Source of the DNA: Arenimonas sp.
GTDB taxonomy: Bacteria; Pseudomonadota; Gammaproteobacteria; Xanthomonadales; Xanthomonadaceae
Assembly: GCF_022842045.1 (NCBI RefSeq)
Contig: NZ_JALHQI010000001.1
Location: 9,774-73,773 of the forward strand
Direction: 5' to 3'
Length of the DNA: 64,000 nucleotides
The translations under genes and the position numbers were made by a program. Numbering within the stretch: the stretch's first letter is position 1; every line of letters begins with the position of its first letter. The notes beneath the pieces were generated by a model, which ran no database searches, was not told the origin of the DNA, and saw nothing but the letters and a program-made list of their open reading frames with translations. Below are positions 3-62,244 of this stretch, one piece after another.

Positions 3-1010
3 ATTCCGGGTGAAACGGCACGGGCATGGCTGAAGCTGCACAACCCGAACGGCATGCCAAATAGCGACGTGGTCAAGCCTTGGGCAAACGGCATGGATGT
101 TACACGCCGATCTTCGGATACGTGGATTATCGATTTCGGTGTCCGCATGGAGGAGGCCGCAGCCGAGCTGTACGAGACACCTTTTGCGCACGTCAAGAAG
201 GCTGTGAGTGCCCAACGTGACGCGAGCACAAAAGACACCAAGTACAAACGGTTCTGGCAAATGGCGCGCCCAATTCCTGCAATGCGCGAAGCTCTGCGAG
301 GTCGGGGTCGATATCTCGTCACGCCTGTAGTTGCAAAGTACCGCCTGTTCGCATGGATGGATGCGGGCGTTCTTGCAGACCATCAACTTATCGCCATTGC
401 CCGCGAAGATGACACTACGTTTGGCGTTCTACACTCGCGCTTTCATGAAATCTGGGCGCTGCGACTCGGCACAGAGCTTGAAGACAGACCCCGCTACACA
501 CCAACGACCACATTCGAGACTTTTCCATTCCCGGACGGCTTAACCCCGAAAGACACCAAGGACGGCGCCCCAGACACGGAGGCCGGCAGAGCTATCTCAG
601 CAGCTGCCAAGCAGCTCAACAATCTGCGCAATACGTGGCTTAACCCGCCGACAATTGTGGATTGGGTTCGGACGCCGGAAGAAGAAGCTGCCGGCTTCCC
701 CAAGCGCCCCGTCGCCAAACCTGGCTATGAGGCCGAGTTAAAAAAGTACACGCTCACCAACCTCTACAACGCCAGAGCCAAGGGCGACGCCGCGTGGCTA
801 GACCGTGCGCACAAAGACTTGGACAAGGCTGTGGCTGCCGCTTACGGCTGGACCGACTACACCCCAGATATGCCTGATGAGGAGATTCTGGGTCGCCTGC
901 TGGCTCTGAACCAAGCGCGCGTTGATAGTGCCCTGTTGGGGGAAGATATCCGGCCTAATGCGAAGAAAGCCAAGGTTACGAGGTCCAAGGCTACGGAGGC
1001 CAAGTTTTAG
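3..1010 (+). CDS. 3' part of an MmeI-like type IIL restriction-modification enzyme / DNA methyltransferase (target-recognition region); 5' end lies outside the window
   Basis: Frame is open from base 3 (IPGETARAWLKLHNPNGMPNSDVVKPW...). It contains YRLFAW..., FGVLHSRFHEIWALRLG and RPRYTPTTTFETFPFP, then TLTNLYN...WLDRAHKDLDKAVAAAYGW, all typical of the MmeI-family C-terminus. Confidence 0.85.
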   Translation: MPGETARAWLKLHNPNGMPNSDVVKPWANGMDVTRRSSDTWIIDFGVRMEEAAAELYETPFAHVKKAVSAQRDASTKDTKYKRFWQMARPIPAMREALRGRGRYLVTPVVAKYRLFAWMDAGVLADHQLIAIAREDDTTFGVLHSRFHEIWALRLGTELEDRPRYTPTTTFETFPFPDGLTPKDTKDGAPDTEAGRAISAAAKQLNNLRNTWLNPPTIVDWVRTPEEEAAGFPKRPVAKPGYEAELKKYTLTNLYNARAKGDAAWLDRAHKDLDKAVAAAYGWTDYTPDMPDEEILGRLLALNQARVDSALLGEDIRPNAKKAKVTRSKATEAKF

Positions 1011-7116: not shown

Positions 7117-8456
7117 ATCGGTTCAATTGGAGTGTCCTGGCCCTCGCTGTTGGAGCGGCGCTGGCCCTGGGGTGGTGGTCGGGACGCGCCTCGGCGCCGG
7201 ACGCCGGGTCGCTGAACGTCCAGGAGACCTCGGCCGAATCGGGCGAGCGCAAAATCTTGTACTACCGCAACCCCATGGGTCTGCCCGACACCTCGCCCGT
7301 GCCCAAGAAGGACGCCATGGGCATGGACTACATCCCGGTATTTGAGGGCGGAGAGCCCGCGGCGGAGCCCGGAACGGTCGTGTTGCCGCCCGACAAGGTC
7401 CAGAAATTGGGCGTGCGCACCGAGGTGGCCGTTCGAGAGGCCTTGGTCGCCAACGTCCGTGCGAGCGCCTCGGTGCAGGTGGACGAGACCCGGCAATTTG
7501 TAGTCGCCCCGCGCTTCGAGGGCTGGATAGAGACCCTGTACGCGAACGAGACCGGCATGACGGTGCGGCGCGGCGAGCCGCTGATGGCGATCTACAGCCC
7601 GGAGCTGATCGCGGCCCAAGGCGAGTACGCGGTGGCCGACGCGGCGGCGAAACGTCTGGCCGACAGTGATCCGGCCAGCGCCGCCACCATGCGCCAGTTG
7701 CGCGACGCGGCGCAAACACGCCTGCGCAACTGGGAGGTGGCAGGGGCACATGTCGCTCGCCAGGGCCGCGAGGCGCGCCTGGTGCTGTCGGCACCCGCCG
7801 ATGCCGTTGTGGTCGACAAGCCTGTCGTCCAGGGTGACCGATTCACCCCGGGCCAGACCATCCTGCGGCTCGCCGACCTCTCCACGGTCTGGGTGATCGC
7901 CGAGGTGCCGACATCGGCGTCGGCCGATCTGGCGATCGGCAGCCAGGCCAGCTTCGAGACGCCCAGCCTGCCCGGACAGCGCTTCGAAGGCGAGGTGAGC
8001 TTCCTCCAGCCGGTCGTCAACCTGACCAGCCGCACGGTCGGCGTGCGAATCGAACTCCCGAACCCCGACGGGGTCCTGCGTCCCGGGCTCTTTGGTGATG
8101 TGGAACTGCAGGGCCGCGGCGGGGACCCGACCGTCGTGGTGCCGCGATCGTCCGTCATCGACTCCGGGACGCGCCAATTGGTCCTGGTGGAGACGGCCCC
8201 GGGCCGATTCGCGCCACGCGAGGTTCGCTTGGGTGCTCGGGCCGGTGATCGGGTCGCCGTGCTGTCGGGCGTCGAGGCCGGGGAGAAGGTCGTGGTCTCG
8301 GCGAACTTCCTGATCGATGCGGAGAGCAACCTGCGATCGGCCATGCAGGGCATGGAACATGGATCGCCTCCCCCGGCCGAGGATCACAGCGCCCATGAGG
8401 CGACGGCAGCACCACCGGCCGAAGACCCGCACGCCGCCCACACGGGAGGGCAGTGA
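7113..8456 (+). CDS. cusB: CusB-like periplasmic adaptor (MFP) of a heavy-metal RND pump
   Basis: KILYYRNPMGLPDTSPVPKKDAMGMDYIPV, lipoyl-like halves, C-terminal ANFLIDAESNL; ATGA overlap with the upstream gene. Confidence 0.88.
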   Translation: MNRFNWSVLALAVGAALALGWWSGRASAPDAGSLNVQETSAESGERKILYYRNPMGLPDTSPVPKKDAMGMDYIPVFEGGEPAAEPGTVVLPPDKVQKLGVRTEVAVREALVANVRASASVQVDETRQFVVAPRFEGWIETLYANETGMTVRRGEPLMAIYSPELIAAQGEYAVADAAAKRLADSDPASAATMRQLRDAAQTRLRNWEVAGAHVARQGREARLVLSAPADAVVVDKPVVQGDRFTPGQTILRLADLSTVWVIAEVPTSASADLAIGSQASFETPSLPGQRFEGEVSFLQPVVNLTSRTVGVRIELPNPDGVLRPGLFGDVELQGRGGDPTVVVPRSSVIDSGTRQLVLVETAPGRFAPREVRLGARAGDRVAVLSGVEAGEKVVVSANFLIDAESNLRSAMQGMEHGSPPPAEDHSAHEATAAPPAEDPHAAHTGGQ

Positions 8457-8457
8457 C

Positions 8458-11400
8458 ATGCTCGCCCGCCTGATCGAATGGTCGGTCCGCAATGTCTTCC
8501 TGGTCCTGGTGATGGCAATCGCCATCACCGCGGCGGGCATTTATGCCGTCGCCCGAACCCCGCTCGATGCCCTGCCCGATCTCTCCGATGTGCAGGTGAT
8601 CGTCTTCACTGAAGTGCCCGGCCAGGCGCCGCAGGTGGTCGAGGACCAGGTCACCTACCCGCTGACCACGGCCATGCTCGCGGTGCCCAAGTCCAAAGTC
8701 GTGCGCGGCTTCTCGTTCTTCGGGGCCTCGTTCGTCTACGTGATCTTTGAGGACGGCACCGACATCTACTGGGCACGCTCGCGCGTGCTTGAGTACCTGA
8801 ACTTTGCGTCCAAGAAGCTGCCCGAAGGCGTGACCCCGACGCTGGGTCCGGACGCCACGGGCGTGGGCTGGGTCTACCAATACGTGCTCGAGGGCGAACA
8901 ATGGTCACTCGACCAGCTACGCGCCATCCAGGACTGGTATGTGCGCTACCAGCTGACCAAGGCCCCGGGCGTCGCCGAAGTGGCCAGCGTCGGCGGCTTT
9001 GTTCGCCAGTACTCGGTCACGGTCGATCCCGGCCGGTTGCGCCAGTACGGCATTCCTTTGTCGAGAATCTCGGAGGTGATCGCCAGCAGCAATCGGGACG
9101 TCGGCGGGCGCGTGCTTGAAATGGCGGAAACGGAGTACATGATCCGCGGCCGCGGTTACCTGCGCGGCATTGAAGACATTGAGCAACTGGTCGTCAAGGC
9201 CGAGGACGGCACCCCGGTCCTCGTGGGCGACCTGGCCCGGGTCGAGCTGGTGCCCGATGAACGCCGTGGCGTCACCGAGCTCAACGGAGAGGGGGAGGTG
9301 GTCGGCGGTATCGCGGTGGCGCGCTATGGCGAGAACGCCCTGACGGTCATCGATGGGATCAAACAGAAAATCGCGGAGATCGGTCCTGGCCTGCCTGAAG
9401 GTGTCTCAATCCGCGCCGTCTACGATCGCTCCGACCTGATTCACCGGGCTATTGCGACCCTGCGCTGGACCCTGCTCGAAGAGAGCGTGATCGTGGCGCT
9501 TGTGTGCATCGTGTTCCTGTTCCATGTCCGCAGCGCGCTGGTCGCAATCATCATGCTGCCCGTGGGCGTGCTGATCGCCTTCCTGGCGATGCGCCTGCTG
9601 GGCATGAACTCGAACATCATGAGTCTGGGCGGCATTGCGATCGCCATAGGCGCGATGGTGGACGCCGCGATCGTGATGATCGAGAACGCGCACAAGCACA
9701 TCGAGCGCGACGATGGAACCAAACCGCGTATCCAGCTGATCATCGATGCCTGCCGCGAGGTCGGCCCCGCCCTGTTCTTCAGCCTGCTGATCATCACGGT
9801 GTCGTTCCTGCCGGTGTTTGCCCTGGAAGCGCAGGAAGGCCGGCTGTTCCATCCGCTGGCGTTCACAAAGACCTTTGCTATGGCGGGCGGCGCGCTGTTG
9901 TCGGTGACCCTGGTCCCGGTCCTGATGCTGCTGTTCGTGCGCGGCAAGATCCTGCCGGAAGCGAAGAATCCGGTGAACCGGTTCCTGATCGCGATCTACC
10001 GGCCGGTGATTGCCGTCGTTCTCAAGCACAAGGCGGCCACGCTGGTGCTGGCCCTGGTTGCCCTGCTCGGAACGGCCTGGCCTGCCTCGCGCCTGGGCAG
10101 CGAGTTCATGCCCACGCTCAACGAGGGCACCCTGCTGTACATGCCCGCGTCACTCCCGGGCATGTCGGTCACCAAGGCGGCGGAATTGCTCCAGCAGCAG
10201 GACCGGATCATCAAGACCTTCCCGGAAGTCGAGTCGGTCTTTGGCAAGGCCGGGCGCGCCCTGACGGCCACGGACCCGGCACCGCTGGAGATGTTCGAGA
10301 CCGTCATCAACCTTAAACCCGAAGACCAATGGCGCGAGGGCATGACCATCGACGCCCTTATCGCCGAGATGGACACGGCGCTGCAGTTCCCCGGCGTGGC
10401 CAATTCCTGGACCATGCCGATCAAGGCCCGCACGGACATGCTGGCCACCGGTATCCGCACGCCGATCGGCATCAAGGTGTTCGGAACGGACCTGGGGGAG
10501 ATGGAGCGACTGGCCAAGGAGATCGAGGCCGCAGTGCGGACCGTGCCGGGCACCACCAGCGCCTACGCCGAGCGTCTCACCGGCGGGTTCTACCTCGATA
10601 TCGAACCCGACCGTCGCCAGTTGGCGCGTTACAACTTGCCGGTCGGCGAGCTGCAAGACGTCATCGCGGCCGCGCTGGGTGGCGAGATGGTCACCACGAC
10701 GGTGGAAGGGCGTGAGCGCTTTGGCGTGATCGTGCGCTATCCCAGGGAATTGCGCGACAGTCCGGAAACCATTGCGCAGCAAGTGTTGGTCCCCACCATG
10801 GACGGCGCCCAGATTCCCTTGGGCGAGTTGGCGCACGTGACGGTTCGCAAGGGCGCGCCGTCGATCCGTACCGAGAACGCCCTGCTATCGGCCTACATCT
10901 ACGTCGACACCCGCGATCCGGACATGGGGGCCTACGTTCGCTCCGCACAGGAGGCCGTAGCCCAGTCGGTCACCTTCCCGCCGGGCTACTACGCCACCTG
11001 GAGCGGCCAGTACGAGTACATGCAGCGGGCGATCGCCAAGATGAAAATCGTGGTGCCGGTGACGCTGTCGCTGATCTTCCTGCTCTTGTACCTGAACTTC
11101 CGCCGGGTCACCGAGTCGCTGATCGTGATGCTGTCCGTGCCCTTTGCCTTGGTCGGCGGCGTGTGGCTGATGTGGGCGCTGGACTACAACCTCAGTGTCG
11201 CGGTTGCCGTTGGCTTCATTGCGCTGGCCGGTGTCGCGGCCGAAACCGGCGTGGTGATGCTGATCTACCTTGACCATGCCTTGGAAGCCCGCGCCAAAGA
11301 CCGGGAGGCGAAAGGCGAGGCGCTGACCTTGGCGGACATCACGGACGCCATCGTCGAGGGCGCCGTCGAACGCGTCCGACCCAAGATGATGACCGTGGTC

Positions 11401-27347: not shown

Positions 27348-29331
<1,984 letters not shown>

Positions 29332-51145: not shown

Positions 51146-53485
51146 ATGAGCCAACACGACAGCCACGCGCCGACCTCCTCGGCGACACCCACCGAACAAC
51201 CCCGCGATCCGGTCTGTGGCATGTTCGTGGACGGTCCCCTGTTCGCGCTTCATGGCGATGTTCGGTACCACTTTTGCTCGGAGCGCTGTCGCCAGAAGTT
51301 TCTGGATGAGCCGGAGCGCTACCTCCAGTCCGAGGGGTCGGCAGGTGGCCATCCTCCCGCTTCGACGGCCGCGCCGGGCGTGCCCCGCGTTCAGTACACC
51401 TGCCCCATGCACCCGGAAATCGTCCGGGACGGACCGGGGACCTGCCCGATCTGCGGCATGGCGCTCGAACCCCTGCAGCCATCGCTGGAGGATGACGAGA
51501 ACCCCGAGTTGGCCGACTTTACGCGTCGGTTCTGGGTCACCCTGCCCCTGACCGTCATCGTGCTGGCCCTGGCGATGTTCGGCCATCTTTGGGACGGTAT
51601 GCAGGCAACCACCCGGACCTGGGTCGAACTGGTCCTGACGGCGCCGGTGGTGCTGTGGGCGGGCTGGCCCTTCTTCGTGCGCGGCGTGGCCTCGCTGCGC
51701 ACCGGCAACCTCAACATGTGGACGCTGATCGGGACCGGTGTTGGCGCCGCCTTCGGCTACAGCGTGGCGGCGACCGTGGCCCCGGGATGGTTCCCGGCTT
51801 CGTTCCAGGAACACGGCCGCGTGGGCGTGTATTTCGAGGCAGCGGCGGTGATCGTCTCGCTCACCCTGCTGGGCCAGTTGCTCGAGCTCAAGGCCCGGTC
51901 GCAGACCTCGGCCGCCATCAAGGCGCTGTTGCGCCTGGCGCCCAAGACCGCCCGCCGCATCAACGCCGACGGCAGCGAAGAGGATATTGCCCTCACCCAC
52001 GTGCACGTCGGCGATCGCCTTCGCGTGCGGCCGGGTGAAAGCGTACCGACCGATGGCGAGGTCGTTCAGGGCGCGTCCAGCGTAGACGAGTCGATGCTCA
52101 CCGGTGAGCCGATGCCGGTCAGCAAGAGCGTTGGGGACCGGGTCATCGGCGCCACCCAGAACGCCTCGGGCAGTCTGGTGATCGTGGCTGACAAGGTCGG
52201 CGCCGATACGGTGCTGAGCCAGATCGTGCAGCTGGTGGCCAACGCCCAGCGGTCGCGGGCGCCCATGCAGCGCATGGCCGATACCGTATCGTTCTGGTTC
52301 GTGCTGGCGGTGCTCGGCATCTCCCTGAGCACCCTTCTGGTCTGGGGCTTCTTCGGGCCGGAGCCGTCCTGGGTATTCGGCGTTCTCAACGCCGTGGCCG
52401 TGCTCATCATCGCCTGCCCCTGCGCCCTGGGCCTGGCAACGCCGATGTCCATCATGGTCGCCACCGGTCGAGCGGCCAGCGTGGGCGTCCTGTTCCGCGA
52501 CGCCGAGGCCATCGAGAACCTGCGTAAGATCGACACGCTGATCGTCGACAAGACCGGCACCTTGACTGAAGGTCGGCCCCGCTACCGCGATACGGCAGCC
52601 TTGACGGGCTTCGCGCCCAGGGAGGTGCTGCGATTGGCCGCAAGCCTGGATCAGGGCAGCGAGCATCCGCTGGCGGCAGCGATCGTCGCCGAAGCCCGGG
52701 AGCGCGGCATGGCCTTGTCGACCCCCGAGTCCTTTGAGTCGGCCAGTGGCATCGGGGTCCGGGGACGGGTCGAGGGTAAGGCGCTGGCCCTGGGCAATGG
52801 CGCCCTCATGGTCGAGGAAGGCGTCGATGTGAGCTCGCTCAAGACAGCCGCCGAACGGCTGCGGGCCGAAGGCGCGAGTGTGATGTTCCTGGCCGTCGAC
52901 GCCGAGCCCGCCGGCCTGATCGCTGTCGCGGACATGATCAAGGAGTCCACGCCCGAAGCGATTGAGCAGCTCCGGGCCGACGGTCTGCGCCTGATCATGG
53001 CGACGGGCGATGGCGAAACCACGGCCGAGGCCGTCGCCAAGGCCTTGGGCATCACCGAGGTGCACGGCGAAGTGCGCCCTCAGGACAAGGTGGAGCTGGT
53101 GGCCGCGCTCAAAGCGCAGGGACGCCGCGTGGCGATGGCGGGCGATGGCATCAACGATGCGCCGGCGCTGGCCCTGGCGGATGTCGGCATCGCCATGGGG
53201 ACCGGCACGGACGTGGCGATGTCCAGCGGCCAGGTGACCCTGGTCAAGGGCGACCTGCGCGGCATTGTCCGGGCCCGGCAGATCTCCGAGGCCACGGTGG
53301 CCAATATGAAGCAGAACCTCGGCTTCGCCTTCCTCTACAACGCCTTGGGCGTGCCGATCGCGGCGGGCGTGCTGTATCCGGTGTTCGGCCTGCTGCTCAG
53401 CCCGATGATCGCGGCCCTGGCCATGAGCTTGAGTTCGGTGTCGGTGGTGGTCAACGCCTTGAGGCTGCGAAACGAAAGCGCCTGA
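51146..53485 (+). CDS. Cu(I)/Ag(I) P1B-1 ATPase with YHS and heavy-metal-binding N-terminus
   Basis: DPVCGM (YHS), YTCPMHPEI...[33 protein letters not shown]. Confidence 0.93.
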
Positions 53486-53594
53486 TGCCCTGCTGAGGCG
53501 CCGTGTGCCGCAGAGGTCGACAGGACCACTGGGCGACGACCGTTTTCGTAACGAAACCATTTTTCACCCGCGGCACCCAAAGGAGAACAGATCC

Positions 53595-54050
53595 ATGAAG
53601 TACTCCCGATTCGGGCTGATGATCCTGGTATCCACTGTTGTGATGTTTGGTTTGATGTACCTCAACAATTACGCGCTTGACCACGTCTATTTCAGCGAAA
53701 CACGCTTCTACATGGCGTTGGTCATGGGCGCGAGCATGGCGGCGGTGATGCTGCTCTTCATGCTCAAGATGTACACCCGCAAAGGCGCCAACTGGACCAT
53801 CCTGGCATCGGCGGTATTGGTGTTCTCCGGCTCGCTGTGGCTGGTCCGCAGCCAGTCCACCATTGAAGACGTTGCCTGGATGAAGGCGATGATCCCGCAT
53901 CACTCGATCGCCATTCTTACCAGCTCGCGCGCCGAAATCAGCGACCCCCGGGTCCGAGACCTGGCCGACCGCATCATCAAGGCGCAGGAGAGCGAGATTG
54001 CCGAGATGAAGCAGTTGATCCAGGAGCTGGAGGCACAGCCCGAGCGGTGA
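53595..54050 (+). CDS. DUF305-family protein
   Basis: WMKAMIPHHSIAILTS, IIKAQESEIAEM; N-terminal TM helices. Confidence 0.8.
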   Translation: MKYSRFGLMILVSTVVMFGLMYLNNYALDHVYFSETRFYMALVMGASMAAVMLLFMLKMYTRKGANWTILASAVLVFSGSLWLVRSQSTIEDVAWMKAMIPHHSIAILTSSRAEISDPRVRDLADRIIKAQESEIAEMKQLIQELEAQPER

Positions 54051-54163
54051 TCCGAACCCGACACCTTTTGTTTGCCGCAACGAGAGACGTTGTCGGCAGC
54101 CGGGCCGGCGAGAAGTTGGGACACTCGCCGGACCGTTCTTTCCGTCCCCTAGGAGAGTTCCCC

Positions 54164-54454
54164 ATGACACGTTTGCTTCCGTTCGCCATCGCCCTGCTGA
54201 TCGCCGCCCCCGTTGCCTGGGCCGACGATAAGGGCCACGACCACATGGCCGCCAAGAATGGCCAGACCCAGCCGCACGACATGGCCGCCATGTCCGCCGA
54301 GGAGTTCGCCAAGCTCGACGCCGACAAGAATGGTCAGCTGTCCCGCAGCGAGCTCCCCAAGGAGCACAAGTTCGCGGCGCATTTCGACATGCTCGATACC
54401 GACAAGAACGGCACCCTCTCGGCGGCCGAGTTCGCCAAGGGCCACGGCATGTGA
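54164..54454 (+). CDS. Secreted two-EF-hand protein
   Basis: Signal peptide; loops DADKNGQLSRSE and DTDKNGTLSAAE. Confidence 0.8.
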   Translation: MTRLLPFAIALLIAAPVAWADDKGHDHMAAKNGQTQPHDMAAMSAEEFAKLDADKNGQLSRSELPKEHKFAAHFDMLDTDKNGTLSAAEFAKGHGM

Positions 54455-54508
54455 CGCTTCCCCCGGGGCGGCGCATGCCGCCCCGGCACCTGATATCGGG
54501 AGAGAGCA

Positions 54509-54991
54509 ATGACACGACTATGGACGGGCCTGGTGGCCCTGCTGTTGGCCGGCGCAGCGATGGCAACCCCCACGCCCATGCCCTCAGATGACACCGCCGC
54601 AATAAAGGCCGTGCTCGCAGCCTACAAGACGGCGCTCGAGCGCCGGGATCTGACGGGTGTGGAGGCGTTGTTTGCCCAGCGCAATGAGGTGATCGAATCG
54701 GGCAAGGTGGAAGGCTCATATGCCGACTACGTGACCCACCACATCGGTCCGGAACTGCGCCACATCCAACGATTTGCATTCGAGGACTATGCGGTGACCG
54801 TCGAGCAGGAGGGCGACATCGCCTGGGCTACGGAGACTTATCGCTACACGATCGTTTTGCCTGACCGTGCCGATCCGATCGTGCGTCAGGGTGCGGCCAC
54901 CAGCGTCCTGCAGCGTAAGGACGGCGTGTGGAGAATCCGCGCCCTGCACAGCTCGTCTAGGGCACCAAAGCCCGCGGCAACGACCCCGTAA
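54509..54991 (+). CDS. Second secreted NTF2-like (DUF4440) protein
   Basis: Signal peptide, VIESG, DIAWATE, WRIRALHSSSR. Confidence 0.75.
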   Translation: MTRLWTGLVALLLAGAAMATPTPMPSDDTAAIKAVLAAYKTALERRDLTGVEALFAQRNEVIESGKVEGSYADYVTHHIGPELRHIQRFAFEDYAVTVEQEGDIAWATETYRYTIVLPDRADPIVRQGAATSVLQRKDGVWRIRALHSSSRAPKPAATTP

Positions 54992-55164: not shown

Positions 55165-56019
55165 TCAGATATTTAGGAGCCCGGGCATGTCAACCCAGCC
55201 AGGCGAGAGGGTCTGGTCGAGGCCAGGAATCGAGTGCCAGGCGACGATCCACAACGCCGCCCGGCGCTCGCAGGGATCCACCAGCTGTCGAAACCCCTCC
55301 CAGCCGTCTGCCTCCCGCAGCTCCCAATAGTGGCGGGGCCCGTGGACGAAGCCTGCCAGAGTCGGGGTCGGCGATAGGTTTGCGATCAGCGGTGGGCCGC
55401 GCGACGCACCGAGGCTAAAGCTCACTTCGCAGAGCCGCTCGCGCACTGAATGAGGGTTGCTGCGCCACGCAGCAGGCCAAGGGGCGCCGCGGAACAAGCT
55501 GGCTTCGAGCGCGGTGCCGAAGTTCTCGATCATGTTCAGAATTTCGCGATCGCAATCAGTGAGCGCCTGTTGCGCGGCGAGGGCCACGGCCAAGTCCGGC
55601 TTGAATCGATCCCGTGGGATGATCAGGGGCGCATTGTGAATCGGACACGTCGTGCGCAAAACATGGGTCCAACTACGCCGGTAACCTCGAGGCCGCTTGG
55701 CTGCGTCATCATCCAGCCAGCACGCCGGACAGATTGCCATCCGTGCGTGCGGGGCCAGCTGCGACGGTGAATCAGGCAGGCGATGGGGTCGCAGCGACGC
55801 TCCTGGAACGCCCAAGGCTTCTCCCACGCGAAGTAGCGCAGCGCAGGAAGGATCATCGATGGTCCCAATCGGTAGCGGATCGTCAGTATTCAGCTGGACC
55901 CACAATTCGCCGGGGTCGGCTTCGTAAAGATCAGCCGCCCGAGCCAGACACGAGCGCAGGGACTCGTCGGGCCCGGGCGGTGAGACCCACCAGCGGGGCG
56001 TGACTTGTTCCATGCTCAC
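55165..56019 (-). CDS. tniQ: TniQ-family target-selector protein (short, 284 aa)
   Basis: PGPDESLRSCLAR, CPACW, WTHVLRTTCPIH; GTGA overlap with tniB. Confidence 0.85.
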   Translation of the reverse strand: MSMEQVTPRWWVSPPGPDESLRSCLARAADLYEADPGELWVQLNTDDPLPIGTIDDPSCAALLRVGEALGVPGASLRPHRLPDSPSQLAPHARMAICPACWLDDDAAKRPRGYRRSWTHVLRTTCPIHNAPLIIPRDRFKPDLAVALAAQQALTDCDREILNMIENFGTALEASLFRGAPWPAAWRSNPHSVRERLCEVSFSLGASRGPPLIANLSPTPTLAGFVHGPRHYWELREADGWEGFRQLVDPCERRAALWIVAWHSIPGLDQTLSPGWVDMPGLLNI

Positions 56020-56933
56020 GCGGCCTTGGCCGGTTCGTTCGCGCGCTCCCGTGCCAGCCTGACAGCGGCTGTGGGCATTTCCACCCTCGCCCGCTCCAGG
56101 AGCTGGGGCGTGATCTTCTCCGTGCCAGACTCGACCGCATGAGCCGCCGCATAGGTGATCAGGCGCATCATGGGATCGAGCACGCCGTCAGAAAGCCGAA
56201 GCAGCGCGGTCGTGATCGGCAACGACGAGAGCTGCGAGGGCTGCTTGAGGGGCAAGACCCGCTCCAGCGCGTCCAGGAAGTTCACCAGGTAATCGTCCTG
56301 CTTCCAGACGGGCAGGCTGCGGTAGGTGAAGCGGGCATTGAGATGCTCGTCGACCTGCATCGCGTCCGGTGCCTGGGCGGTTCCCAGCGCCAACACCGGC
56401 ATCGACAGCTGGTTCATCAGGAATTTGATCGTATCCAGGGCAATGCGCTGCTGCCGCGCCGTCGAGGTCAGGATGTCCTGGATCTCGTCGACCACGAGCA
56501 GGCGCAGATTGGCCGCCCGGCACAGCTTGAGCACCATGCGTTCGCGGTCGCTGCCCACGTAGCGTTTCGGATCGGGCACCCCCAGTTCGGTCAGGATCCG
56601 GTCGTAGAGCGCCCGTGCCTCACGGGCACCCGTCATTTCGATCGTCAGGACCGGCAGGCTGGCCGCTTTGCTTCCTTCGGCGGCAATCGGCGGATACCTG
56701 CGTTCGATGGCACGGGCGATCATGGTCTTGCCCGAGCCGGGCAGTCCCGAGACCACCAGCCCGCTGGCCCGGGACTTGGGCGGACTGAAGCGAAGGAAGT
56801 CGATGTGATCCATGATCGGCTGCAGCCGCTCATGGGTGATGAAGCGGTCAATCAGCATCCGGTTGGCACGCTCCAGGTCCGGCAGTTCAAGCCAGGCCTG
56901 GGTCTTGGGGTCGAGGTGGGAATAGTCGGTCAT
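56016..56933 (-). CDS. tniB: TniB/TnsC AAA+ ATPase
   Basis: Walker A GLPGSGKT, Walker B LLVVDEIQD, ALGT. Confidence 0.9.
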   Translation of the reverse strand: MTDYSHLDPKTQAWLELPDLERANRMLIDRFITHERLQPIMDHIDFLRFSPPKSRASGLVVSGLPGSGKTMIARAIERRYPPIAAEGSKAASLPVLTIEMTGAREARALYDRILTELGVPDPKRYVGSDRERMVLKLCRAANLRLLVVDEIQDILTSTARQQRIALDTIKFLMNQLSMPVLALGTAQAPDAMQVDEHLNARFTYRSLPVWKQDDYLVNFLDALERVLPLKQPSQLSSLPITTALLRLSDGVLDPMMRLITYAAAHAVESGTEKITPQLLERARVEMPTAAVRLARERANEPAKAA

Positions 56934-56943
56934 GACAAGCTCC

Positions 56944-58737
56944 TTAGGTCCATTCTTCAACAGGGATGGGCGCACGGGCCGACGGCGTTTTCGGCGGCAG
57001 GGCGCTGAGATCGGTGGGGTTCACGGCAGCCGCACTGGCAGCCGCGGATCGCGGCGAGGGGCGTTTGGTCCGCGGACGACGCGACGGATGGCGGGCCTGG
57101 CGGGTCTGCGCCTGGGCGGTCGCTTCGATCTGGTCGGTCTTCTCGAAGCCTTCGTCCGTCATCGCGTCCATCCGGGCCTGGGCCTCGGCATCGAGGGCGC
57201 GGCGGCTGCCCGGCTCACCCACGGCCCGCCCGGCGATCGCCGGCGCCGTCACCAGCATGCCGTCCGGACGACGGACCCAGACGGCACCGGGGCTGCGGGG
57301 GTCGTACCGAACCATGACCTCGTCCTGGCGGATGAGGGGGCTGAGGTCCGGGTGCCAGTAGCGGCTGGCGCCGAAGGTGATGCCGGTGCGCCGAACCGGC
57401 CGCATCACGTATGGCAGGAAATCCATCCGGAACTTCAGCGGGGCCGCCGGCAGCGCCGGCGGGACCAACTGGCCCTGTTCGTCCTGCAGGCCCCGCTCCC
57501 AGGCCACCAGTGGCGGGACTCCGAGGCTGGAATGCCTGCGCGTGTGGTAGGTCCGGCACACCTTCTGCGTCATCCACTGGCGGAACTCATCCAGGGTGAG
57601 GCGAGCCTTTCCGGCGCTGTCGTAGTCGCCCTTGTCACGGATGTTGCTGAAGGTGGTGCCCGGCAGCAGGTGGGCGATCTGCATCAGCGTGCCGATCAGG
57701 CGCTCGATGTGGGCCCCGTAGTGCGGCGTCCGCACCGGCCGCCAGGCCAGATCGATCCCATGGTCCTGGCAGCCACGCTGCAGCGCCATGCTGCGGAAGT
57801 CCTTGCCGTTGTCGACCAGGATCTTCTTGGGCTTGCCGTACATGGGCCAGATGCCGGGATCGCCCTCGTTCTCGGGCTTGGGCAGCACCGTGTGCTCCAC
57901 GCACAAGGAGACAGAAACCGCCGAGGGGGGATCCATGGAGATGTACATGCCCATGACGCAGCGGGTCGCCACATCGATGGCCACGGTGACCCAGGGACGT
58001 CCGATCACGGTCAGGCGGTCATCGCTCAGGACGAGGACGTCGGCCGGGGTGTGGTCAATCTCCAGCAGATCCAGCGGCCGTTCCGCCTCCAACTTGCCGG
58101 TGCGGGCCTCCCAACGTTGCTTGGCCGCCTTGCAGCCCAACCGGGCGCGGTCCGCCTGGTAGCCGTTTTCACGGGCGATTCGGGTCAGCACCGCGGATCG
58201 GGACGGCGGCTTGAGCTTGAGTCGCCGAGCCAGGGAGCGGGCACGGGCAACCACGTACTCCTTGGACGGTCGTTCCCGGCGCAGGTAGTGCTTGGCAATG
58301 ACGTGCTTGATCAGCGTATCGACCTCCGGATCCAGCTGATTCAGGCCGAGCGGCCGACCTCCCGGGCTTCGGGCCAAGGCGCTGGCCCGCGGGTCCTTCC
58401 TGAAGGTCGCACGGGCCCTCTGAAGCTGCCTGACGCTGATGCCGTGCCGCTTGGCGAGCTTTTCTAGCTCGCTGCGGGCGACGGTGCTCCGGCTGTTCAG
58501 GGGCATCAGGTCCTTGGCGAGGTCACAGCAGCGCTTCCATTCCGCAGCAGGGATTCCCTCAAAGGACGAGACTGCCGCAGTCTTGGGCAGCGCCTCGATC
58601 CGGGCGATCGCGACGGAACTGACCGCCCCCGTGGCCACATCACGCACGCGCATGTGGGTGAGCGAGTCGGCCCCGTCGATCTGGATGACCCGGCCATTGG
58701 CGACGCAGGTCGTGCCAGGGGTGAGTTCGAGCGTCAT
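56944..58737 (-). CDS. tniA: TniA/TnsB DDE transposase
   Basis: LEIDHT (D), LVDNGKDF (D), HIERLIGT (E), YHTRRHSSL. Confidence 0.92.
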   Translation of the reverse strand: MTLELTPGTTCVANGRVIQIDGADSLTHMRVRDVATGAVSSVAIARIEALPKTAAVSSFEGIPAAEWKRCCDLAKDLMPLNSRSTVARSELEKLAKRHGISVRQLQRARATFRKDPRASALARSPGGRPLGLNQLDPEVDTLIKHVIAKHYLRRERPSKEYVVARARSLARRLKLKPPSRSAVLTRIARENGYQADRARLGCKAAKQRWEARTGKLEAERPLDLLEIDHTPADVLVLSDDRLTVIGRPWVTVAIDVATRCVMGMYISMDPPSAVSVSLCVEHTVLPKPENEGDPGIWPMYGKPKKILVDNGKDFRSMALQRGCQDHGIDLAWRPVRTPHYGAHIERLIGTLMQIAHLLPGTTFSNIRDKGDYDSAGKARLTLDEFRQWMTQKVCRTYHTRRHSSLGVPPLVAWERGLQDEQGQLVPPALPAAPLKFRMDFLPYVMRPVRRTGITFGASRYWHPDLSPLIRQDEVMVRYDPRSPGAVWVRRPDGMLVTAPAIAGRAVGEPGSRRALDAEAQARMDAMTDEGFEKTDQIEATAQAQTRQARHPSRRPRTKRPSPRSAAASAAAVNPTDLSALPPKTPSARAPIPVEEWT

Positions 58738-59204
58738 GGCCGCGCCCTCCCCGTCCGAAGCTGACATTCGGTAAGCACGACCGTGGCGAAGCCGAGCAAC
58801 CGGCGAACAGCCGCCAGGCGGCGGCTCACCGCGTCGGGATCACGGTCCAACAAGGACTTCGACTTGATTTCGACGACCGTCCACCGTCGAAATCCCAACC
58901 GGAAAATGGCGCGGGTGACCCGGTCGTAAACCACCAGGAAGTCAGGGGTGTAGCGGTGGACGCCATCGACATCCGCGTAGCGGAGCGTGAACGGCTGGGC
59001 ATGGATGGCCACCAGGCCGGCGTGTCGCGAGAAGAACGCAATGGCATGCGCCTCGAGGTCGCTCTCTACGGGCACGGATTGGGTGGGTGGCGTCCAGGCA
59101 ACGCGACCGCAGACGTGCCTCCCATGGGAGAGCGGAATTTCTCGAGCGGACCATCGAATGGCACCGTCCACTTTGGACGGCGGGGGTTGATGCATGGCTT
59201 TCAT
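58734..59204 (-). CDS. tnsA: TnsA-like endonuclease
   Basis: ESDLE, QP, YTPDFLV, VEIK; stop overlaps the tniA start (ATGA). Confidence 0.8.
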   Translation of the reverse strand: MKAMHQPPPSKVDGAIRWSAREIPLSHGRHVCGRVAWTPPTQSVPVESDLEAHAIAFFSRHAGLVAIHAQPFTLRYADVDGVHRYTPDFLVVYDRVTRAIFRLGFRRWTVVEIKSKSLLDRDPDAVSRRLAAVRRLLGFATVVLTECQLRTGRARP

Positions 59205-59815
59205 TGGAATTTCTCCAAGGCACAGAGCGGCCCCGACGTGGGTCGGGGCGACGATTTGGCTTGTGGTCAACAGCTGCCCATGGGGTGTCCTCCCTTGAAT
59301 GAGAGGCTTCCCTGCCGGGGGGCTTGGAGACTGTGGATGTCCCACAAGGACGCTCTGCCTTGAGCTGCCCACGCTCCATCGGGGATGGCGACGCATCGTC
59401 CGTGCAGGCGGCACGAGACGCGCCGGCGGAGGTGAGTGAGGGGGACGCTAGCGGCGTTTCTCGCCGGCGAAAGTTAGACGAGGTTTTGCCGAAATGCGTT
59501 CACCCCTCGTCACGAAGGGGTTTCGCGCTCGTTGGCGGACCCGGGCGTCGCCGCGTGGGGGTCGTTGGCGCAACCAGGTGCGCGCTGGCCGGTATCCGCT
59601 TTACCGTGACGTTAGATGACAGAATGCTCCTTAATCCTGTCGCACGCCATCCGAAAACCCCTGTGCCCGGAGGATAAGGTTAGAAGAAATGTCCATAACT
59701 TTCCGCAACTTGCCCAGGGCCTGTCACGGTGCGCCGCGGTTTGGCGGACTGTGACAGATGGCCCGTGTGCCAAGCTTGGCGCGTTGCCCACTTCAACGTT
59801 CCCAGGCCCCCTCCC

Positions 59816-61546
59816 ATGCCCCAGGTCGACGATGCCCTTCTGACGCTGGTGGTTGGCGTGACGGGCCACCGTGACATCCCGTCCGACGAGTTCCCCGCCT
59901 TGGCCGCCCGGGTGACGGAACTGCTCAAGACCCTGCGCCGGGAATTCCCCGGGCTGCCGCTGCTGATGCTCAATCCGTTGGCCGATGGTGGCGACCGGAT
60001 CGCCGCGCGGGCCGCCGTCGCCATGGGTGTGCCGCTGTTCGTGCCGATGCCGTTCGCGCGCGACGAATACGAGCGCGACTTCGAGACGCCCGAGTCGCTG
60101 GCCGAATTCCGCGAGTTGATCGCCGATGCACGCGTCCGCGAGCTGCCCCTGGCGCCCGGCGTCAGCGCCGACGAGATCGCCATCCGCGGCCCGGCCCGCA
60201 ACCGCCAGTACGCCCAGCTCGGCATGTTCATCTCGTCCCATTGCCAGGTGCTGCTGGCGCTGTGGGATGGCCAGCCCAGCGATGCCCTCGGCGGCACGGC
60301 GCAGGTCGTGGACTACCACATCACCAACGCCATGCCCTGGATCGAAAAGCGCGACATCGCCCCGAACCTGTTGGCCGACGACGAAAGCGACCTAGTCTAC
60401 CACGTCACCTGTTCGCGCCAGCTGGCCCCCGGCAGCACGCCCGGCGCCGTGGCTGCCGGCGAAGCGCGCTGGCTCACGGCCGACGGTGGCTTGCCTGTGA
60501 AGGCCGGGGTGCCGGCGGCGTATCGCGCCGTGTTCCGGCAGATGGAGGCATTTAATGTCGACACCCGGAAATACTGGCCGGGCATCCGCCATGACTACCC
60601 TCGCCTGCTGCCCGAGCCTCCGCCGGCGCCGGTGCCGCCGGGCGTGCTGCGGATCGAGCGCCTGTTCGGCGCCGCCGACTGGCTGGCGCTGCATTTCCGC
60701 CAGCGCGTGCGCCGCAACCTGCAGGCCAGCCACCTCGCGGCGGCGCTGATGGGCCTGGCCTTCATTCTTTACTCCGACATGGCATCCCGGCGGGAATTCG
60801 TGGGTGCGTTCCTGCTGCTGTTCGCGGCGGGAGCCCTGCTGGCGTGGGTGGCACGGCGGCGGCAGTGGCAGCGCAAGTACCTCGACTACCGCGGCCTGTC
60901 CGAAGGCCTGCGCGTGCAGCTTTACTGGCGGCTCGCGGGCGTACCGGTGCCGGCCGACGGCAGCCTGGGCTACGACAGCTTCCTGCAAAAGCAGGACGTG
61001 GAGCTGAGCTGGATCCGCCATGCCATGCGTGGCACCAGCCTGGTGCAGGACAGCGGGTTTGCGTCGGATCCGCGCTGGCTGGACTGGACCATCCGGCACT
61101 GGGTCGGCGACGACGCCGGCCAGGGCGGCCAGCTGGCCTACTTCAGGCAAGGCAGCCAGGATCGCGCCAAGGCCTACCTGCTGACCGAGCGGCTGGGCCG
61201 GCTTTCACTCTACGCCGGCCTGGCCGGGGCGGTGCTGCTTTGGCTGCTGGGCCACCGCATCGACGGGTCGCACCAGTCGCTGCTGCTGCTGTTCATGGGC
61301 CTGTTGCCGCTGATCGCCGGCATCCGCGAGGCGTATTCGTTCAAGAAGGCGGACAAGGAGCTGATCAAGCAGTTCCAGTTCATGGCGCGCCTGTTTGCCA
61401 GCTGCAGCGAACGGCTGGCGCGCGCCACGTCGGTCGGGCAAAAGCGCGAGCTGCTGCTGGCGCTGGGTCGCGCGTGCCTGGAAGAGCACGCCGAATGGAT
61501 CCTGCTGCATCGCGACCGGCCACTGGACGCGCAGGCGCCGCAGTAA
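59816..61546 (+). CDS. SLOG-domain protein with C-terminal SLATT-like 2TM effector modules
   Basis: VGVTGHRD, PLADGGDRIAA, LLALWDG...GGTAQVV (SLOG/YpsA-like); two TM pairs followed by W..KYLDYRGLSEGLR and F..M..LF...LG.ACLEEHAEW..HR. Confidence 0.7.
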   Translation: MPQVDDALLTLVVGVTGHRDIPSDEFPALAARVTELLKTLRREFPGLPLLMLNPLADGGDRIAARAAVAMGVPLFVPMPFARDEYERDFETPESLAEFRELIADARVRELPLAPGVSADEIAIRGPARNRQYAQLGMFISSHCQVLLALWDGQPSDALGGTAQVVDYHITNAMPWIEKRDIAPNLLADDESDLVYHVTCSRQLAPGSTPGAVAAGEARWLTADGGLPVKAGVPAAYRAVFRQMEAFNVDTRKYWPGIRHDYPRLLPEPPPAPVPPGVLRIERLFGAADWLALHFRQRVRRNLQASHLAAALMGLAFILYSDMASRREFVGAFLLLFAAGALLAWVARRRQWQRKYLDYRGLSEGLRVQLYWRLAGVPVPADGSLGYDSFLQKQDVELSWIRHAMRGTSLVQDSGFASDPRWLDWTIRHWVGDDAGQGGQLAYFRQGSQDRAKAYLLTERLGRLSLYAGLAGAVLLWLLGHRIDGSHQSLLLLFMGLLPLIAGIREAYSFKKADKELIKQFQFMARLFASCSERLARATSVGQKRELLLALGRACLEEHAEWILLHRDRPLDAQAPQ

Positions 61547-61555
61547 GCCCCTGAT

Positions 61556-61927
61556 TCAGGCCGCGGCTTCCCGCCGGCGCCCCAACAGCAGCGCCAGCAC
61601 GCCTTCGAAGCGGTCGAGCTCGCCGGCGTCGGCGGCGCTGCGCGTATACATGTCCGGGTCGTCGCAGACCCGGAGGATGCGGCACTGCCCCGCCCCGCTC
61701 TCGTCCACGCTGATCTCGGCCTCGTAGATGCACTCGCCGGTGGCGCCGCGCCAGGCGCGGAGCTGGCCCTCGTCCAGCCAGACCACCCAGCGGTCCTCGA
61801 GGCTGGTGGGCCACAGCCCCTCGGCCAGCTTCGCCATCTCCTCCGGCGTGAAGCTGCGCGCGCAGCGCACGGGCCAGGCCAGCCGCATCCGGCGCAGGCG
61901 GGTCAACCACTCGTCTCGTTCGTCCAT
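61556..61927 (-). CDS. Hypothetical protein
   Basis: RSFTPEEM..L..G..P..LEDRW..WL....L..WR..TG.CIY pattern. Confidence 0.55.
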   Translation of the reverse strand: MDERDEWLTRLRRMRLAWPVRCARSFTPEEMAKLAEGLWPTSLEDRWVVWLDEGQLRAWRGATGECIYEAEISVDESGAGQCRILRVCDDPDMYTRSAADAGELDRFEGVLALLLGRRREAAA

Positions 61928-62244
61928 GGGCTTCCGTGTCGGGTGGTCCGCGGGCAGTTTGCCCGGCGGTTGGCTCATACATTGAGACGGACATCCCGTC
62001 CCGGCGAGGCCAACCCGCCCCGCCCCGCCGGCGCCATGGCCTCAGCCGGCGCCGCCCGCGTTCGCGCGCGCGGCTTGCGACGGGCTCACTCGCTGCCGGC
62101 TTGTTCGACGACCAGGAATCGCGCCTCGCCCACGGGATGCGCGATGTGCGCCAGGCCCTCGCGGGCATGGAAGATATCGCCCGGACCGAGCAAGGCACGG
62201 CGCCGGACTCGGGGAGAGTGAGGTCCGGCGCAAGGGGGAAGCAG

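Follow-up and report, generated by a model that had tools for sequence, protein, structure and literature searches.

We analyzed a 64,000-nucleotide stretch of Arenimonas sp. DNA (the window; positions 9774 to 73773 of contig C1 of G000, the genome under study) that contains the transposition genes tniQ, tnsC, tnsB, and tnsA between positions 55165 and 59204. The best overall explanation, to which we assign a probability of about 0.55, is that positions 55165 to 59756 represent the transposition end of a ~70-kb Tn7/Tn5053-type metal-resistance transposon which homes to dif, the chromosomal site at which dimers are resolved and which is bound by the recombinases XerC and XerD, and whose TniQ docks on these host proteins. 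Taken by itself, the homing of this element family to dif is very probable. A sequence-only reading of the same DNA had left the targeting route unexplained and had proposed to map the insertion sites of homologous elements. This mapping yielded nine related elements with resolved ends, which identified the chromosomal dif site as the target.

Insertion of related elements next to dif

Relatives of the element were taken from metagenome contigs and Arenimonas genomes. In the element-free relative G016, the gene corresponding to the right flank of the element is directly preceded by the AT-rich 20-mer GCATAATGTATATTATGTCA (L024:15209), which is the core of the published dif site of Xanthomonas campestris (Carnoy and Roten 2009, PMC2731167). 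The 20-mer occurs exactly once in 14 of the 15 genomes that were searched besides G000; two copies, at contig ends, are present in G002 and none in G048, and the count of a single dif held at up to three mismatches. The target-side flank in the window (59757 to 59815) is homologous to the G016 DNA that starts ~7 bp after the 20-mer, as seen in the alignment with L024 and L025.

In the nine elements with resolved ends, the terminus was located 28 to 62 bp from the 20-mer, and the intervening spacers were unrelated to each other. The distance between the second terminus, TGTCCCCG, and the 20-mer was 62, 37, and 43 bp for A. caeni, A. malthae, and the SCN 70-307 genome, respectively. Distant relatives, which have no tnsA and encode TniQ proteins of 32 to 43% identity, were inserted 28, 31, 32, and 56 bp from the 20-mer on the XerD side and, in two cases, 33 bp from it on the XerC side. 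Measured from the terminus to the center of dif, the nine distances were 39, 42, 42, 42, 43, 48, 54, 67, and 73 bp; five elements were thus found 39 to 43 bp away, on either side. The XerD side was used by seven elements and the XerC side by two. The end facing dif was the tns-distal end in all nine.

The resolved elements are bounded by TGT...ACA termini, and 5-bp target duplications were present at both ends of the elements of A. malthae (GCACC), G226 (ACCGT), and G351 (GTTTC). Duplications of this length, together with transposon ends, indicate transposition events rather than Xer integrations. The A. caeni element displayed a 9-bp direct repeat, CCCGGCTCC, in place of 5 bp (G352:C2:86615-86623 and 147917-147925).

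dif itself was not present in the G000 assembly, in which the host-flank contig C74 stops 2 to 3 bp before the dif position. A contig break at dif, or no more than a few bases away from it, was seen in three draft assemblies (G000:C74, G424:C131, and the ends of C26 and C91 in G002), which suggests population heterogeneity or stacked elements at a hotspot.

Transposition genes and the compact TniQ

The four transposition genes are located on the minus strand and overlap head to tail. tnsB (56944 to 58767) encodes a TniA-type DDE transposase of 607 aa (Pfam Mu-transpos_C, E = 3e-13; rve, E = 8e-5), and tnsC (56016 to 56975) encodes a TniB-type AAA+ regulator whose open reading frame (ORF) comprises 319 aa, or 305 aa as called in relatives (Pfam TniB, E = 1e-41, plus AAA_22). 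TnsC is 99% identical in A. caeni, A. malthae, and the SCN 70-307 genome. TnsB is 98% identical in three Arenimonas genomes and 42 to 68% identical in relatives that lack TnsA.

The ORF encoding TnsA spans 58734 to 59414, and the start that is conserved in relatives is at 59204, which yields a compact tnsA gene (58734 to 59204) for a protein of 156 aa with the catalytic domain only; the C-terminal domain of Tn7 TnsA is absent. Both Pfam and NCBIfam matches to TnsA were below threshold, at 6e-5 for the Pfam match to a TnsA-like N domain and with a weak match to NCBIfam TnsA_like. All seven orthologues are 156 aa long, and the residues E47, YTPD88F, and E112-x-K114 are invariant, which strengthens the assignment as TnsA. 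To judge from the alignment, E47, D88, and E112-x-K114 constitute the catalytic signature of TnsA-type nucleases. A search of the TnsA sequence against solved structures returned no match, and the AlphaFold2 (AF2) model derived from the seven-sequence alignment, with a predicted local distance difference test score (pLDDT) of 44, was too poor for use.

tniQ (55165 to 56019) encodes a core-only target-selector adaptor of 284 aa with a CxxC...CxxH zinc finger (Pfam TniQ, E = 7e-11). Nine homologues were found among 5.8 billion proteins. The zinc finger is kept, and since all nine homologues are 282 to 293 aa long, the short TniQ can be considered native and complete. The AF2 model of TniQ had a pLDDT of 92.9, and its structural matches were TniQ and TnsD only. 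Residues 8 to 284 of the model aligned to residues 1-257/268 of type I-F TniQ (Z of 6 to 7.3), residues 3 to 173 aligned to TnsD (Z of 8.6), and the N-terminal half matched ShTniQ. Because the model aligns over its full length to the TniQ of CRISPR-associated transposons without any extra domain, TniQ is predicted to be a bare core devoid of a DNA-reading extension. At loci L009 and L010, TnsA, TnsB, and TnsC were 93 to 99% identical to the proteins encoded in the window and TniQ just 71%; either the selector gene was replaced, or its evolution is much faster than that of its neighbors.

Pfam scans of all large ORFs in the window revealed no TnsD, TnsE, Cas, or resolvase domain. Contig C1 (168 kb) contains a single TniQ domain, no serine resolvase (PF00239), and no CRISPR-like array. 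Serine resolvase genes were not found beside tniQ in seven relatives either. Within the window, neither tRNA genes nor Rfam matches were detected; for want of the latter, the idea that the leader of tnsA (552 bp) might encode a guide RNA was set aside. A 442-aa ORF beside tniQ (53451 to 54779) was considered as a hidden selector and rejected as an out-of-frame artifact, being Arg/Pro-rich and overlapping a real SnoaL gene. This SnoaL gene, on the opposite strand, is the actual gene downstream of tniQ. No consistent gene followed tniQ across the relatives, in which the downstream genes differ.

These results bear out most of what the sequence-only reading had stated about the module. The ORFs, the Pfam matches, and the invariant E, D, and K residues agree with a Tn7-like module with a compact TnsA at 55165 to 59204. 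The absence of TnsD, TnsE, CRISPR arrays, and CRISPR effectors from the window was confirmed by the scans, as was that of a tniR gene after tniQ by the lack of PF00239 on C1. The AF2 model, which consists of the core alone, supports the view that a 284-aa TniQ has little room for a TnsD-type DNA-binding domain. The kinship with TnsA-less, Tn5053-like elements is reflected in the relatives of TnsB, TnsC, and TniQ, which occur without TnsA.

A tyrosine recombinase and a TnpT-like partner at the far end

Outside the window, at C1:155-1243, the same element carries a gene for a tyrosine recombinase of 362 aa (PF00589, 64.7 bits), in whose translation the catalytic residues R, K, HxxR, H, and Y are all present. 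A KfrA/TnpT-like gene is located upstream of and divergent from the recombinase gene, with the conserved palindrome CGATAAGTGATGATTATCG between the two; the core site of the recombinase is CGATAA-N7-TTATCG. The pair was found in every element examined, 0.6 to 3.6 kb from dif and at the dif-proximal end, and it is 68 to 80% identical across elements in which TniQ is 32 to 43% identical. The same pair also occurs on Xanthomonas plasmids without tns genes. In G046 (loci L047 and L031, oriented 8329 to 8383), the TnpT-like gene is duplicated, with 55% identity. The recombinase is neither XerC nor XerD, scoring ~35 bits against the respective models. The host XerD and XerC are encoded on C9 and C65 and score above the NCBIfam cutoffs.

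Most likely, to go by its gene content, the pair serves as a resolution cassette for cointegrates or multimers in place of TniR. It exhibits the features of the TnpS/TnpT type known from Tn4651, an assignment made by layout: an active-type tyrosine recombinase, a divergent helper, and a palindromic core. The TnsA-less relatives would need a resolution function, in line with such a role. The sequence-only reading had noted that no resolvase was present; this holds for the window, and for serine resolvases on the whole of C1, and it fails for the element, which encodes the tyrosine recombinase. It had also considered a second targeting gene in the element. A second recombinase gene is indeed present, which we read as part of the resolution cassette and not as a selector. 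Its suggestion that a targeting partner might lie outside the window or be encoded by the host fits both the far-end recombinase and the host XerC/XerD.

How the element may recognize dif

In the mechanism that we propose, TnsB and the compact TnsA, whose catalytic residues appear intact, would excise the element, and TnsC would link TnsA/TnsB to TniQ. The core-only TniQ would dock on the nucleoprotein complex that host XerC/XerD forms with dif. TnsC would then set the insertion ~42 bp from the center of dif, with the tns-distal end toward dif. Finally, the recombinase, the TnpT-like gene, and the palindrome at the dif-proximal end would resolve cointegrates or multimers. For XerC/XerD on dif as the partner of TniQ, we consider the odds to be about even. 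A fuller version is tentative and falls a little short of even odds: XerC/XerD would act as a beacon for the bare-core TniQ, the element would land ~42 bp from the center of dif on a side set by the TniQ variant, and TnsA would have been added to a replicative tniABQ element which kept its resolution cassette.

Several observations weigh against this explanation. The left end of the window's copy lies outside the assembly, and we infer its junction with dif from the relatives. The insertion point deduced for this copy, at ~7 bp, is far nearer to the 20-mer than those of the nine resolved elements; it derives from an intergenic alignment of ~60% identity and is held loosely. Four of the nine distances (48 to 73 bp from the center) deviate from the modal spacing, and the nine elements are kin and therefore not fully independent trials. 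The contact between TniQ and the Xer proteins is itself deduced: the tyrosine recombinase encoded by the element could be the real partner, or the helix-turn-helix and zinc finger of the TniQ core might read dif unaided.

If TniQ, like TnsD at the end of glmS, recognized the DNA of dif directly, no protein partner would be required. Most genomes searched share all 20 bp of dif, which would make an ideal conserved attachment site, the spacing of 39 to 43 bp in five of the nine elements is ruler-like, and the N-terminal part of the TniQ model aligns to TnsD with the Z score given above. However, TniQ contains nothing equivalent to the C-terminal region by which TnsD binds DNA, and Faure et al. 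2023 (PMC10293859) see in a small TniQ the characteristic sign of a separate selector. In addition, dif is normally occupied by XerC/XerD, and different sub-lineages of the element use both sides of dif at the same distance, which is easier to reconcile with a pseudo-symmetric protein complex than with an asymmetric sequence. We consider direct reading to be unlikely. Still less probable is that the element's own tyrosine recombinase and its TnpT-like partner bind dif and recruit TniQ, a TnsF-like route with an active enzyme. The constant presence of the pair near dif, its conservation relative to TniQ, and the dif-like ATAA/TTAT arm design of CGATAA-N7-TTATCG would favor such a role, for which TniQ-TnsF of Tn6022 and Tsy provide precedent (PMC10293859). 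Yet the complete set of catalytic residues and the layout with divergent helper and palindrome are those expected of a resolution cassette, the pair is maintained on plasmids devoid of tns genes, it is located 55 to 65 kb from tniQ and outside the tniQ operon, and it bears little resemblance to XerC/XerD (~35 bits).

It is very improbable that no dif-directed transposition took place and that the positions reflect Xer-mediated integration of the kind seen for integrative mobile elements exploiting Xer (IMEX), a bias toward the terminus region, or shared descent. In favor of this view, Xer-exploiting elements are known to land beside dif (PMC2731167), the elements studied here are kin to one another, and contigs end at dif in some assemblies. 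Nevertheless, IMEX-like integration would leave two flanking dif copies, and one dif per genome was found. The TGT...ACA termini and the 5-bp duplications point to a transposon, positions, spacers, sides, and cargo vary between genomes, and the site is empty in G016. Moreover, a precision of ≤62 bp in genomes of 3 to 5 Mb is far tighter than any regional bias. Docking on the XerC/XerD-dif complex remains our preferred account of targeting.

Ends, size, and cargo of the element

The right end of the element was placed at exactly 59756, where the homology of seven aligned elements begins and beyond which their flanks are unrelated. The first shared base upstream of tnsA in the seven elements is the T of TGTCACAG or TGTCGTCG. 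Between tnsA and the end lies a noncoding leader of 552 bp on the minus strand (59205 to 59756), which contains the terminus TGTCACAG, read on the minus strand from 59756, and sub-terminal repeats. Within the most conserved stretch of the leader lies a mini-ORF of four codons (MGSC, stop), preceded by a strong Shine-Dalgarno sequence (59267 to 59281, minus strand). It is kept in both sub-families and may be a regulatory leader. At L009 and L013, the four bases after the right end are identical (CCCG).

Positions C1:13545-69529 (3772 to 59756 of the window) align collinearly, at 90 to 97% identity, with the A. caeni element (61.3 kb). The alignment ends precisely at the right end, which indicates that positions 1 to 59756 of the window are all within the element. 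The left end could not be found in G000 by inverted repeats, short BLAST, or a repeat-motif scan. The sole repeat-cluster match for it was discarded as a His-rich coding repeat outside the window. The two element ends share just 15 of 26 terminal bases. Contig C1 begins inside a gene which, in A. caeni, is ~3.4 kb from the left end, and the element would accordingly measure ~73 kb, with its left end presumably abutting dif beyond the assembly.

Cargo occupies positions 1 to 55164 and, according to Pfam, includes two RND Czc/Cus-type pumps, three P-type ATPases, MerA, a CDF transporter, a multicopper oxidase, an MmeI-like end, and metabolic genes. The MerA mercuric reductase, which has an HMA domain, is encoded at 27348 to 29042 (minus strand), and positions 3 to 1010 (plus strand) are the end of an MmeI-type restriction-modification gene (C1:7775-10783). 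Tandem-element junctions were considered as the source of copper genes outside the right end and rejected, as no ACA terminus abuts the right ends.

Beyond the right end, a 576-aa ORF (59816 to 61546, plus strand) starts 60 bp outside the element. It had no Pfam match over threshold, and in both G016 and G002 it is the gene that adjoins dif. In the window, it is followed by a conserved gene at 61556 to 61978 (minus strand) for a protein of 123 to 140 aa, with an MDERDEWL start in relatives, which is located beside dif in several Arenimonas genomes. The 123-aa gene was considered as a glmS-like attachment gene and rejected, the right ends being 0, ~150, ~680, and ~1800 bp away from it; it recurs near right ends because it adjoins dif. 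On metagenome contig L004, the right end takes the place of the stop codon of a gene of this type.

Probable gain of tnsA and distribution of the family

tnsA is absent from the relatives G392, G372, G048, G200, G351, G226, and G046, and a profile search for compact TnsA in the genomes of five relatives gave no match. According to the TnsB tree, the clade with TnsA branches from within lines that lack it (support of 87/94). This topology suggests a single gain of tnsA as more parsimonious than three losses. The TniQ family comprised 45 representatives at E < 1e-30 among 1.84 billion proteins. It was found in 9 of 401 genomes of the order, in none of 400 sampled genomes of the class, and in none of 72,556 plasmids.

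Comparison with known systems

With the Tn5053/Tn402 family (tniA-tniB-tniQ-tniR), in which TniA acts without TnsA and transposition is replicative, the element shares TniA/TnsB, a TniB-sized TnsC, and TniQ; the closest relatives of the element likewise have no TnsA. Minakhina et al. are said to have described in 1999 that Tn5053 homes to res sites as a "res-site hunter," with nearby insertions in one orientation. Homing to a site-specific recombination site is common to both, and would here be extended to a tyrosine-recombinase site, the chromosomal XerC/XerD site dif, in place of the res site of a serine resolvase. Unlike Tn5053, the element has no tniR and carries a tyrosine recombinase with a TnpT-like helper instead. 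Its TniQ is ~120 aa shorter, the Arenimonas clade adds TnsA, the cargo amounts to 60 to 70 kb, and none of the elements was found on plasmids. With Tn7, the element has in common a TnsA+TnsB transposase, TnsC, a selector of the TniQ family, TGT termini, and the use of one conserved chromosomal site at a short fixed distance; the 5-bp duplication of Tn7 is matched in three of its relatives. It differs in that TniQ has no TnsD DNA-binding extension, TnsA has no C-terminal domain, and TnsE is missing. The right end of Tn7 faces its target attTn7, whereas here the tns-distal end faces the target, which is noncoding and bound by recombinases.

Transposons of the Cas12k type resemble the element in their TnsA-less core of TnsB, TnsC, and a small TniQ, in which TniQ acts as an adaptor to a separate target binder; their left end faces the target. 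In contrast to them, no Cas12k, guide RNA, or array is present here, and a protein complex located at a fixed site is proposed as the binder. Elements of the Tn6022 family (Faure et al. 2023, PMC10293859; Peters laboratory 2024, PMC11014353) combine a short TniQ with TnsF, an inactivated tyrosine-recombinase-like protein encoded in an operon with tniQ, and insert in comM. Their use of a short TniQ with a tyrosine-recombinase-type protein as DNA reader is a published precedent for the proposed mechanism. The element differs from them in that no TnsF gene is found beside tniQ, the target is dif and not comM, and the proposed partner is the host's active XerC/XerD. The ISAjo2 group of the IS1202 family, as far as it is described where PMC11014353 cites Harmer, Pong and Hall 2023, consists of insertion sequences targeting dif and pdif. 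Xer recombination sites as targets and insertion a short distance away are shared features. These insertion sequences belong to an unrelated, single-transposase family without TnsC, TniQ, or large cargo. IMEX are bounded by dif and a second dif-like site and have no transposase ends; the elements described here are accompanied by one dif per genome and have transposon termini and duplications.

A small TniQ was described as the hallmark of an additional selector, with TnsF at comM as an example, and thousands of Tn7-like loci have a single TniQ/TnsD, for the small ones of which direct binding and the use of a partner could not be told apart (Faure et al. 2023, PMC10293859). Pinning the target of one small-TniQ family from sequence alone makes the question of its partner testable. 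In our literature search, no description was found of a Tn7- or Tn5053-type element homing to dif; papers dealing with both Tn7-like elements and dif only mentioned a dif-like site carried by Tn6022 or cited the dif-targeting IS1202 family. If our explanation is true, homing to dif would provide a safe landing site that almost all bacterial chromosomes possess. Tn7-type targeting would be connected with the Xer machinery, in parallel to res-site hunting by Tn5053, and the transposon would need no DNA-reading protein of its own. Homing to dif would also account for the build-up of metal-resistance islands of 60 to 70 kb at the replication terminus in Arenimonas and in related Lysobacterales. 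Furthermore, the clade allows one TnsB/TnsC/TniQ core to be compared, as it occurs in nature, in the presence and in the absence of TnsA.

Other Tn7-like genes in the genome

A second, unrelated Tn7-like element was found in the genome under study at C29:22500-27400 (locus L054:7507-12322). It encodes a full-length TnsA of 287 aa, a TnsB of 645 aa, a TnsC of 301 aa, and a TniQ of 381 aa. As it adjoins a truncated Mg-chelatase/ComM-type gene, it is probably a comM-inserting element of the Tn6022 type. Two further ORFs with a TniQ domain are located on C12 and C13.

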